Source of the DNA: an uncultured Chlamydiae bacterium | GTDB lineage: Bacteria; Chlamydiota; Chlamydiia; Chlamydiales; Parachlamydiaceae | NCBI GenBank assembly: GCA_963830365.1 | Contig: CAWHMU010000006.1 | Span: 1 to 18,389, forward strand | DNA: 18,389 nucleotides | Direction: 5' to 3' | Shown here: in pieces, positions 12,605 through 18,389 of the stretch | Numbering within the stretch: position 1 is the stretch's first letter | Layout: every line of letters starts with the position of its first letter | Position numbers and translations under genes: made by a program | The notes under the pieces: model-generated | The model's database searches: none | Told to the model about the DNA's origin: nothing | What the model saw: only the letters and a program-made list of their open reading frames with translations

Positions 12605-12616
12605 AAATCAAAAAAA

Positions 12617-12980
12617 GTCTGGGAAGACGTTAAGCCGGATCCTGTCGCCGGCACCCTAAGGCGCCAGCCGGCAATCATTCATCTAGGGACTTCGTCACCG
12701 AAGTCCTCAAGCGATCTGTAAGAGGCGCGGCGGAGTACCGCATAGCCTCATCTCGATCTTGCTTCGGATAGGGTTTGTCGACCTCCAAGTTTCCTTGGAT
12801 GGGGCCAGACTCTCAAAGCTGGCGTTTCACCCTGTTGGCGGACCGAGGTCCGCCACGGTATGCTTTCTGTTACACTTTCCGTAGCCTTACGGCCCCCAGT
12901 ATTTCACTGGTATCCTCTCCTGCAAAGTCCGGACTTTCCTCTCTCGCAAACAGCGACAGCGATTGCCTGTCTTCCCAGAC
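12617..12980 (-). ncRNA. rnpB: RNase P RNA (bacterial type A)
   Basis: The minus strand has GAGGAAAGTCCGGAC near the 5' end, GGAAAGTGTAACAGAAA, AGCAAG and CTAGATGAATGATTGCC internally, and ACAGGATCCGGCTTA near the 3' end. The P1 helix GTCTGGGAAGAC/GTCTTCCCAGAC closes the ends. Confidence 0.97.
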
Positions 12981-16488: not shown

Positions 16489-16771
16489 ATATACCACGCG
16501 TGGTTAGGTTGTGCACATTTTGGCAACGAGAAAGCTCCCGTGGTATAAGAAACGGCACCATTGAAATCAGGTGCCCATCCGCATTCAAACTAAAATCAGG
16601 CGCCCGAACTCGCGCTCAAGAGCTTAGTTTGGCTTCCGCCCACTGCAAAGCACAAGCGGCCTATCCTAAAGAAACAATCCGTACCGGTGCCGATCCCCTT
16701 TAACCTGAAACGGCAGTTGTGCCTATGAAAGGGTGCCAAATCCTTTCACTTCTGCCACGGCCGTTGAAGAT

Positions 16772-17110
16772 GTTGCCTAATGTTGATATAGCATTCGATC
16801 GATTTCATAATTGTAGCAATGCTGAACGATGGAATAGACGAAATTCGTAGAAATCAGCAAGCCAAATGCAATGAAGCAGAGCTGAGAGTTCTCAAGAGGC
16901 GCAGGTTTCTTCTCTTAAAGATACCATGATCTAGTGAGAATTTGACATATTGGACAAAATCCACATCAACGGAGGGGGTAACGTTTTTGAGCCGGCATCC
17001 GACAAATGCAAAGACAGAAGGTGTCAATAAGATTCAAATAACGAAGCGACAGGCTTATGGATTTAGAGATATGGAATGCTTCAAGCTTCGATTGTATAAT
17101 TTTCGGCCTT
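16772..17110 (+). pseudogene. ISL3-family transposase remnant
   Basis: Fragments LPNVDIAFDRFH / (frameshift) IVAMLNDGIDEIRR...LKRRRFLLLK* / TNAKTEGVNKIQITKRQAYGFRDMECFKLRLY match the ISL3 DRFH and EG.N.KI...KR.AYGFR motifs. Internally deleted. Confidence 0.85.
16921..16955 (+). repeat. 35-bp dispersed repeat (copy 2)
   Basis: ataccatgatctagtgagaatttgacatattggac, located at the break point of the ISL3 remnant. Confidence 0.9.
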
Positions 17111-17442
17111 GTTCACCTAGTCGGTCAAAAAATGAATTTTCTCATTAGAGACAGATCAATGAAAAAAAAGCGACTTCAGATTGAAGCTCTGGATTCTTGG
17201 TTTTTTTCAAAAAAAAATACTGGTTGCTGAGCTCCAAAGGAGTGGCAATATTTTCAGCCCACGGTATAGCGTCGGAGACGCAAACCGTGGGATAGGCAAA
17301 TAAAATAAGGTTCATCCGACAAATGCGTACCTTAGCACAGTAGAAATAATTTAGGTTCATCACAGAAATTCGTACAGACTCTCAAGGTTTGGGGTCGAGC
17401 CTGGGATTTGAGCCCTAAACTCTAAAATTAATACAGATACTC

Positions 17443-17612
17443 TCAAATCGCAAATCGCAGGCTTGACCTCAGTCAGGGCTCTCGGTAACAGACCGATAGC
17501 ACTATCGCGCTGGCATAAACCACAACGAATTTAACCAGAACCTCTTCTCTTGTTTCATATCTCTAGTTTGCTTAAACCCTGCTTGAGGTCAAGCCTGCGA
17601 TTTGCGATTTGA
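17443..17612. repeat. Perfect 29-bp inverted repeat (GGTCAAGCCTGCGATTTG family; 4 copies in the MITE)
   Basis: 17443-17471 and 17584-17612 are perfect IRs. Degenerate copies at 17390-17411 and 17795-17822. Confidence 0.9.
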
Positions 17613-17629
17613 AAACGTCCACCTTATTT

Positions 17630-17770
17630 GGCGTTGTTACACCCAACCGGTCAATTTCTTGTTCCGTGCTCTCTGTGCCTCTGTGTTTGATTTTTTGAAA
17701 CACAGAGCCACAGAGAGCGCGGAGCGAAGCATCATCGTGACCGAAAGTTTCCTGTGAAGGTGGACACGGC
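17630..17770 (-). repeat. CACAGAG-hairpin module (copy 2, inverted)
   Basis: The reverse complement aligns to 5444-5598, apart from a short deletion and a few substitutions. Confidence 0.9.
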
Positions 17771-17997
17771 CCCTTCTTTTAGCTCTCTCTAATTTCAAAT
17801 CACAAATCACGGCTCGACCCCACTCCTCGAGAGTCAGGTACGCATTTATCGGATGAACCTAAAATAATTTAGTCCCAAGGGGGCGTTATAATTTCAGCCT
17901 CGATAGCATACTAAAAATGAAACGGCCAAAATGCAATTATAACGCCCCCTTGGGACTGGATTGTTTTTTTATAGCCCACGGTTTGCGCCGAATGGCG

Positions 17998-18389
17998 GCC
18001 GAGTAGTTAAATGGACTTTCACCATAAAACCCTCACAGAACCGTACGTGAAGCTCTCACTTCATACGGCTCGTCTGTCCAAATCGTGTCTCTGCATCCAT
18101 TGCCAATTCGCAAAAAGATTTGATTCTCTTTTTCTTATTCTAGATAACCAGTCTTTTGCTTTTAGCCAACTATGCTTCAACTTCTCATATTTCTTCTTTG
18201 CCCATTTCATCAAGACAGTGTCTACATTCCTCATTATAGGCCAAAGTTCAGACGCATTAAATTTCCCATAATAATTTATCCATCCTGATATGACTGGATT
18301 TATTATTTTGGTGAATTCTCTTAGATTTCCATTCGGTTTGACTTCTTTTAACCAGCTTTTTATTTTATCCCTTGCCTTCTGTTTTGCCC
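17998..18389 (-). mobile_element. Group II intron, 3' part (domains V-VI; bacterial class D-like), continuing beyond the window
   Basis: DV GAGCCGTATGAAGTGAGAGCTTCACGTACGGTTC (18071-18038) with the AGC triad. DVI GAGGGTTTTATGGTGAAAGTCCATTTAACTACTC with a bulged A. Probable 3' end ...CTACTCGGC at 17998. Confidence 0.93.
18061..18387 (-). CDS. ltrA: Group II intron RT/maturase, C-terminal X (thumb) domain, partial; no endonuclease domain
   Basis: Not in the ORF track. Translates AKQKARDKIKSW...IINPVISGWINYYGKF...LMKWAKKKY...LFANW...RRAV*, matching the NP..RGW.NYY maturase motif. The stop lies inside DV. Confidence 0.93.
   Translation of the reverse strand, partial: AKQKARDKIKSWLKEVKPNGNLREFTKIINPVISGWINYYGKFNASELWPIMRNVDTVLMKWAKKKYEKLKHSWLKAKDWLSRIRKRESNLFANWQWMQRHDLDRRAV

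Follow-up and report, generated by a model that had tools for sequence, protein, structure and literature searches.

How does a group II intron whose protein lacks an endonuclease domain come to lie inside one arm of a palindromic repeat, and what does it recognise there? The question arises at the end of the window, the whole 18,389-nt stretch analysed here, which is contig C6 in its entirety and belongs to a 2.73-Mb assembly in 48 contigs that is 82% complete, so that intron copies can be missing from the counts given below. The original prediction, made from the sequence of the window, was that the intron is En-minus and class D-like and homes to a family of palindromic repeats present in many copies. 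The features of the locus are the following.

17229..17291, plus strand: intact left REP arm, with a small hairpin, a T-rich linker and a long hairpin at 17258-17291 (DNA fold -16.2 kcal/mol, z -4.8).
17309..17859, no strand assigned: ISL3-type MITE in the REPIN spacer, 551 bp, with further nested inverted repeats (95.8% copy on contig C38).
17861..17967, no strand assigned: central long hairpin of the REPIN, with 36-nt arms that are 89% complementary (DNA fold z -5.6 for 17861-17997).
17975..17997, minus strand: 3' exon, read from the sequence as the half of the split REP arm that lies beyond the intron (CGCC/GGCG as inner stem, AAA, and CCGTGGG as arm of the outer stem).
17998..18389, minus strand: last 392 nt (3' end) of a group IIB (class D-like) intron of 1,866 nt, near-identical to copies on contigs C45, C46 and C43 and cut by the contig end.
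17998..18073, minus strand: intron domains V and VI (Rfam RF00029, 63.9 bits).
18061..18387, minus strand: C-terminal 108 aa of the intron-encoded protein (IEP), comprising the maturase/X domain and tail (GIIM E 7e-16) and identical to residues 312-419 of the full-length IEP.

On the minus strand the intron terminates ...CTACTCGGC at 17998 and is followed at 17997-17975 by CGCC-ATTC-GGCG-C-AAA-CCGTGGG. This junction at 17998/17997 mirrors the intact left arm at 17258-17291, in agreement with the predicted insertion of a group II intron in a REP-like arm. The A at 18004, seventh from the intron end, is the likely branch point. The two arms of the REPIN are separated by the MITE, which is bordered by an 8-bp duplication, TAAAATAA, at 17301-17308 and 17860-17867; we take the element to be of ISL3 type from its GG-started TIR and this duplication. 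The left arm is empty and lies on the C-rich strand; it has one IBS1 mismatch (GTATAG) and reads TCAG where most arms have GTAG. The nearest empty sister of the interrupted site is at C43:7835, and its site is imperfect. A search of every other contig of the assembly did not recover the 5' part of the window copy. A 308-aa protein, P0076, on a 155,624-nt contig outside the assembly is 99% identical to the IEP N-terminus and may represent that part.

The window piece is 99.7% identical to three full copies found by BLAST (C45:171788-173653, C46:73419-71554 and C43:17902-19768) and differs from them at 2 of 392 positions, one of which is the last base of the contig. The full copies measure 1,866 nt, those on C45 and C46 being identical and that on C43 carrying one extra base (1,867 nt). 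They show the D5-D6 core of a group II intron, an RT/maturase ORF with YADD in domain IV, and a domain I structure matched by RF01999 (D1D4-2) at 102.6 bits, the 5' 542 nt folding with a z of -4.2. Near-identical copies at precise sites suggest that the intron self-splices and retrohomes. Elsewhere in the genome, at C12:~690-1300 on the minus strand, there is the remnant of a group II intron without an ORF and degenerate at its 5' end, 73% identical across 213 nt, that ends in AT and does not lie within a REP arm.

The intron ends are UUGUG...GC, with the terminus GGC, and deviate from the consensus GUGYG...AY. The empty sister arms fix the junction unambiguously and exclude ends shifted by one base either way. 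A U at position 1 and a penultimate G are present in all four introns of the clade described below that are available whole (our own, L143, L144 and G412). Among more distant relatives the start was found in 13 of 33, always GTGYG, and the end in 12 (7 GAC, 3 GAT and 2 ACC), GGC occurring in none of these 12. A UUGCG...GU pair is known from a CL1 intron, according to the consulted part of PMC7923331, so deviating ends of this kind have been described before.

The IEP is 419 aa long and scores 446.7 bits against TIGR04416 (cut-off 300). Its ORF stops inside D5 and holds RVT_1 and GIIM with no further Pfam domain, so the protein has no endonuclease domain, as had been noted from the sequence. 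The intron likely belongs to class D: the IEP is without DNA-binding and endonuclease domains, and EBS1-IBS1, EBS2-IBS2 and EBS3-IBS3 form 6 + 5 + 1 pairs. The protein is 50-57% identical to class D-type IEPs of S. meliloti, against 37% to that of a further intron that shares their plasmid. The class D C-terminal motif LX3AX3PXLF[V/A]HW is only partly kept, with L, LF, A and W retained and A, P and H replaced; close relatives mostly retain P and H and have K in place of A.

The 5' exons of all three full copies end AGCCCAC-G/A-GTGTAG, and CG follows the intron. This is the predicted form CCCACGGT-N4; the 5' exon of the window copy itself lies beyond the contig end. The expected complementarity to EBS1 and EBS2 is present, and EBS3 pairs as well. 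EBS1 (CUACAC, nt 254-259) and EBS2 (GUGGG, nt 223-227) are each unique within the first 600 nt of the intron, EBS1 lying in a hairpin loop of the centroid fold. EBS3 is G317, which pairs with the first base of the 3' exon (C, IBS3) at a junction identical in 4/4 copies, and which aligns with G329 of the pSymA intron that we take to be RmInt1 from its G329, +1 C and 5' end. Every intron copy maps to a repeat arm, and all four occupy one exact arm position; because the arms make up only about 0.08% of the two strands of the genome, this placement is not due to chance. Because EBS1, EBS2 and EBS3 all match the site, the target is likely recognised by base pairing rather than by the hairpin reading of class C introns. 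No evidence for an EBS2a-IBS2a interaction is reported for RmInt1-type introns in the consulted part of PMC8643678.

Folding of the intact left arm places IBS2 in a paired stretch and the G-T-A of IBS1 in an internal loop; to pair with its target, the intron RNA would need to open the stem. Class C (IIC) introns insert after terminators or attC hairpins, as stated in the consulted parts of PMC7923331 and PMC8643678. The present intron resembles them in being En-minus and tied to a DNA hairpin; class C introns, as described there, have no EBS2 and an EBS1 of 3-4 bp and insert just after the hairpin, whereas here EBS1 spans 6 bp, EBS2 spans 5 bp and co-varies with its target, and insertion is inside the arm. 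Class C hairpin targeting as the main mechanism was rejected since EBS2 is present and co-varies. The GsI-IIC RT gave 161 bits versus 461 bits for an RmInt1-type IEP, the two values coming from different searches.

The repeat family comprises 76 arms with a visible 5' half, 48 of them dispersed and 28 in an array on contig C16. Most arms read GTAG followed by a CCCAC stem, and their long hairpin is GC-rich and bulged; GTAG before the stem is the REP signature according to the consulted part of PMC6006769. The arms are multicopy and extragenic and form inverted doublets: in 20 facing pairs, each around a central hairpin, the arms are separated by about 165-177 nt, or by 727 nt in the window. 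This genome contains the exact 15-mer core of the arm 47 times. Of 400 further genomes in the phylum, 7 have it once or twice, and 4 of these 8 outside loci show the full hairpin. The C16 array (73800-79000) consists of 14 REPIN units in tandem with a period of about 384 nt, reaches the contig end, and may be a real amplification or an assembly artefact. An attC reading was considered from the shape of the repeats and rejected: they are GTAG-tagged doublets flanking a Y1 gene, not cassette-separating sites.

This Y1 (HUH) gene (C45:169616-170494; L001:1117-1995) encodes 292 aa with two tandem Y1 domains and is bracketed by two REP arms on each side in inverted order. Its motifs DHVH, WQ and YIQNQEEHH fit TnpA-Y1 subclass 1.2, and it scores 102.8 bits against NF033573 (IS200-type), over the cut-off. 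It is not a RAYT (class 2, Y---NP): the motif is Y---Q--HH, and NF047646 gives 56.9 bits, below the cut-off of 80. The gene likely spreads the REPs that flank it. Long inverted repeats also surround the three subclass-1.2-like genes with a single domain (L005-L007), the repeat around L005 being a different GTAG-tagged palindrome.

At C42:63168-63655 and C46:71190-73543, ISL3-type MITEs with 8-bp duplications carry a whole REPIN as cargo, and on C46 the intron sits within that cargo, so that intron, REPIN and MITE are nested one in the other. One could imagine that the intron inserted once or twice and then spread passively as REPIN or MITE cargo. The C46 nest is in favour of this, and REPINs are themselves mobile; Bertels and Rainey are said to have described them as mobile elements. 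The rest of the evidence largely refutes this reading, to which we give hardly any credence: loop, spacer and small hairpin vary among the four host REPINs, whose introns differ by 0-1 nt (2/392 for the window copy), the MITE twin on C42 is empty, and the other three copies are not within a TIR pair.

A site is perfect here if it reads CCCAC, GTGTAG and +1 C. The dispersed arms with a visible 5' half hold 14 such sites (3 filled, 11 free), and the C16 array holds another 14, all free and on the C-rich strand; the genome contains no perfect motif outside the repeat, all 25 free ones being in REP arms. With strands assigned by whole-contig skew and introns masked, 4/4 filled sites lie on the G-rich strand, the window copy being counted as a perfect filled site by assumption, and 11/11 free perfect dispersed sites lie on the C-rich strand. 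By simple arithmetic such a split is expected 1 time in 1,365. With local skew at fourfold codon sites, 10 of the 11 free sites are C-rich (Fisher p 0.0037), one C20 site near zero having flipped; when the window copy and both C20 sites are left out, p is 0.0045. On C20, C45 and C46 the skew is weak (0.016-0.028), and sites that share a contig are not independent, which lowers the weight of these p values. None of the 18 imperfect arms on the G-rich strand is occupied. The best control for a strand effect is the MITE-borne REPIN on C42, which is empty and oriented oppositely to its occupied counterpart on C46: 484 of 488 flanking bases match, and the two sites are identical within 20 nt on each side.

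The original prediction of an En-minus, class D-like intron homing to multicopy palindromic repeats is thus supported and can be made more precise: the repeats targeted are REPs/REPINs with a GTAG tag whose arms flank a Y1 (HUH) gene, the site appears to be recognised through sequence pairing and not by class C hairpin reading, and insertion is confined to perfect sites of one strand.

By general background the G-rich strand would be the leading one; in this genome 5 of 14 housekeeping motif matches, and the 16S gene, are on the G-rich strand. If the assignment holds, the G-rich strand is the template of the next lagging strand, which is the preference published for the class D introns RmInt1, RmInt2 and Sr.md.I1 in the consulted parts of PMC8914252 and PMC4615759. 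The asymmetry would fit homing into the lagging-strand template together with near-saturation of the perfect sites. It might instead result from transcription, from selection (copies kept only if co-transcribed, or harmful otherwise) or from chance, with no link between insertion and the fork. All three full copies do have a co-oriented upstream gene, the events number only four, and the leading strand is assigned from background knowledge. The same co-orientation is found at 6 of the 11 free perfect sites, so the direction of transcription does not explain the pattern; p remains at 0.004-0.005 under cautious counts, and the direction of the bias agrees with that published for class D. We therefore judge an origin unrelated to the fork to be quite improbable and retain fork-linked insertion.

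Relatives of the intron bear on how far pairing alone defines the target. About 98-100 protein clusters, considered as proteins without their context, are 66-83% identical to the IEP, above a step to 64%. A metagenome scan with an intron-only pattern yielded three contigs (L143, L144 and L145) with IEPs 72-74% identical, and in all three, at one contig each, the intron lies in a REP-like hairpin. That of L144 follows AGCCCATAGTGTAG (EBS1 CUACGC, EBS2 GUGGG). That of L145 follows AGCCCATAGTGACT (EBS1 GGUCAC, EBS2 AUGGG), and the opposite arm holds the start of a second copy, head-to-head. That of L143 splits the inner stem (EBS1 GGUCGC, EBS2 CGUCGU). Searches of 400 genomes of the phylum and 72 of the family, the second query taking in 60 nt of exon, added G417, G412, G360, G407 and G147. 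G417 has two copies at an identical REP position, G412 has one in the 3' arm of a related REP, and in G360 only the 3' exon is visible, in the REP of that genome; its 5' end was sought with the start motif, which gave 5 exact matches, none of them an intron. The introns of G407 and G147 come after gene ends. The REP pattern is counted 44 times in G417, 30 in G412 and 14 in G360, once each in G407 and G147, and 0 times in controls.

Thus 6 of the 8 clade introns with a known 5' exon (all except G407 and G147) lie in REP-like hairpins, with four different EBS1/EBS2 sets, and guides co-vary with targets. EBS3 pairs with +1 in all four members having both (G-C, C-G, C-G, U-A). A quick RNA tree without bootstrap unites the eight UUGUG introns in a clade (100) within which the two gene-end introns branch; in a quick IEP tree, likewise without bootstrap and with no outgroup class, a single clade of 24 rows (SH-aLRT 99) takes in all six REP-inserted IEPs, and its other 18 rows are without context. 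With those 18 rows lacking context, the REP label showed no clustering in this tree beyond shuffles. More distant class D-like loci with aligned 5' ends have other targets, such as RT YADD codons and other genes, and not this REP. Viral contigs gave 0 matches to the clade pattern, and in a GTDB scan the 80 loci retained of 114 were all 46-66% identical, outside the clade.

That the clade stays on REPs despite changes of guide raises the possibility that the folded hairpin or the GTAG foot is itself recognised, by the IEP or by the RNA, on top of base pairing, as a class C-like cue in a class D intron. The 6/8 occurrence with four different guide sets and the position of the cut, which adjoins the internal loop of the hairpin, would be explained in this way. 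We nevertheless think such recognition unlikely: full EBS1, EBS2 and EBS3 pairing is kept and sites with a single mismatch stay empty; the insertion position differs, being the 5' arm in our genome (G000), G417, L144 and L145, the 3' arm in G412 and the inner stem in L143; a nested branch uses gene ends; and the hairpin sequesters IBS2, which should hinder pairing. A broader hypothesis, which we hold to be doubtful, is that this class D clade (about 100 protein clusters, 66-83% identity, U1/penultimate-G ends) is a hyperparasite of REPs made by subclass-1.2 HUH transposases, the protein reading the folded hairpin or GTAG foot on single-stranded DNA and the RNA guides drifting to track host REP variants. 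If true, it would provide a second, class C-independent route to structure-guided intron homing.

Four near-identical En-minus group IIB copies at the same REP-arm position, matched by EBS1, EBS2 and EBS3, are in our judgement likely products of RmInt1-style retrohoming into a single-stranded lagging-strand template. Intron RNA would be produced by read-through from upstream genes, would splice with the help of its IEP and would reverse-splice into the template at the replication fork, its guides pairing 6+5+1 nt with the REP arm. The G-T-A of IBS1 in the internal loop of the hairpin is a possible nucleation point, and the nascent lagging strand would prime the copying. REP doublets would supply intergenic targets in both orientations, and all perfect sites on the permissive strand are likely already filled. 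If the REPs are spread by the HUH (Y1) gene that they flank, the intron would in turn parasitise another repeat system. REP targets appear to have been retained in the clade while its guides changed, one branch having probably moved to gene ends in genomes that lack these REPs.

The closest precedent is RmInt2 of Sinorhizobium meliloti, a class D intron that homes into ISRm17 inverted repeats (PMC4615759, consulted part) and, because of this choice of target, always has a lagging-strand site. As far as that text goes, the two introns share a 419-aa En-minus IEP, EBS1/2/3 pairing and an inverted-repeat target in both orientations, and the G-rich-strand bias of the filled sites here fits the lagging-strand-template bias of RmInt2. 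The target here differs, being a non-coding REP/REPIN arm tied to a HUH (Y1) gene rather than an IS end; specificity looks strict, unlike the relaxed specificity of RmInt2, and the ends are UUGUG...GC.

RmInt1 has the same protein layout (50% identity to the pSymA copies taken as RmInt1), a one-base IBS1-IBS2 linker and an EBS3 G with +1 C. Unlike the present intron it has, in the sources as consulted, a transposase-gene target, a canonical G start and the full class D C-terminal motif. It is a class D, IIB3 intron with ISRm2011-2 as its target (PMC8914252, PMC3123198, PMC5894124), and its EBS3 and IBS3 are given as 329G and C+1 (PMC3123198).

Mobile elements with REPs as a dedicated intergenic target are known among insertion sequences, namely IS1397, ISPpu9/10 and ISPa11, which unlike this intron are DNA transposons; in the consulted part of the same source, 2 of 9 P. 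putida group II introns are REP-associated, not as dedicated homing (Tobes and Pareja 2006, PMC1525189). The repeats themselves resemble REP/REPIN-RAYT and TnpA-Y1 subclass 1.2 systems in their GTAG-tagged, bulged long hairpins, inverted doublets and 2+2 arms around a Y1 gene (PMC6006769, PMC3733652, consulted parts). Subclass 1.2 is tabulated without REPs and at about 148 aa (Quentin et al. 2018, PMC6006769, Table 1), in contrast to the 292-aa double-Y1 gene flanked by REP arms found here; the supplements of these two papers may list REPs beside subclass 1.2 genes. Within the consulted text, then, REP-like repeats are now tied to a HUH subclass published as REP-less.

A literature search that covered few subscription papers returned no paper on a REP-homing group II intron. 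The present case adds REP palindromes, for a class D lineage, to the refuges already known for group II introns of bacteria (IS elements, terminators and attC sites). The genome amounts to a natural experiment in which identical targets exist in both orientations and only one is filled, as a fork-linked rule at near-saturation would predict. The clade further offers a natural series of EBS1/EBS2/EBS3 retargeting, and its U1/penultimate-G end pair is useful for testing splice-site rules.

Several observations were made alongside. On L144 (minus strand) a 38-nt near-copy of the 5' exon follows the first intron and precedes an unrelated ORF-less intron (GUGCG start) with EBS1 CUACAC and EBS2 GUGGG, the same as in the window intron; the two would seem to have converged on the same REP site. 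A multicopy GC-ended intron in G360 (L155-L159, L161, L164-L166, L168, L169), several copies of which lie in the REP family of that genome, was considered for the clade and set aside as a different intron, its D5 being of class C type. Class D-like introns at L022, L023, L024, L037 and L038 (G380, G249, G360), at least some of them ORF-less, are preceded by two or three degenerate tandem units of ~18 nt that hold their own IBS2 and IBS1, possibly a multiplication of the target; L037 has two introns about 640 nt apart. One genome of the same family carries an IEP identical to one on a Neochlamydia plasmid.

The host genome is unusually rich in small palindromic repeats and has a CT398-like gene; together with the Neochlamydia plasmid match in its family, this gene makes an environmental chlamydia the likely host. 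Within the window, four more dispersed repeat families, with 24-59 BLAST matches each, occupy 16490-16547, 16921-16955, 17443-17612 and 17663-17723, and a transposase C-terminus remnant (EGVNKIQITKRQAYGFRD), presumably ISL3-like, adjoins a partial copy of the MITE terminal repeat at 16950-17150. A ParE-family toxin with a small ORF upstream, likely its antitoxin (152-695), and a class A RNase P RNA (12615-12978) are ordinary.
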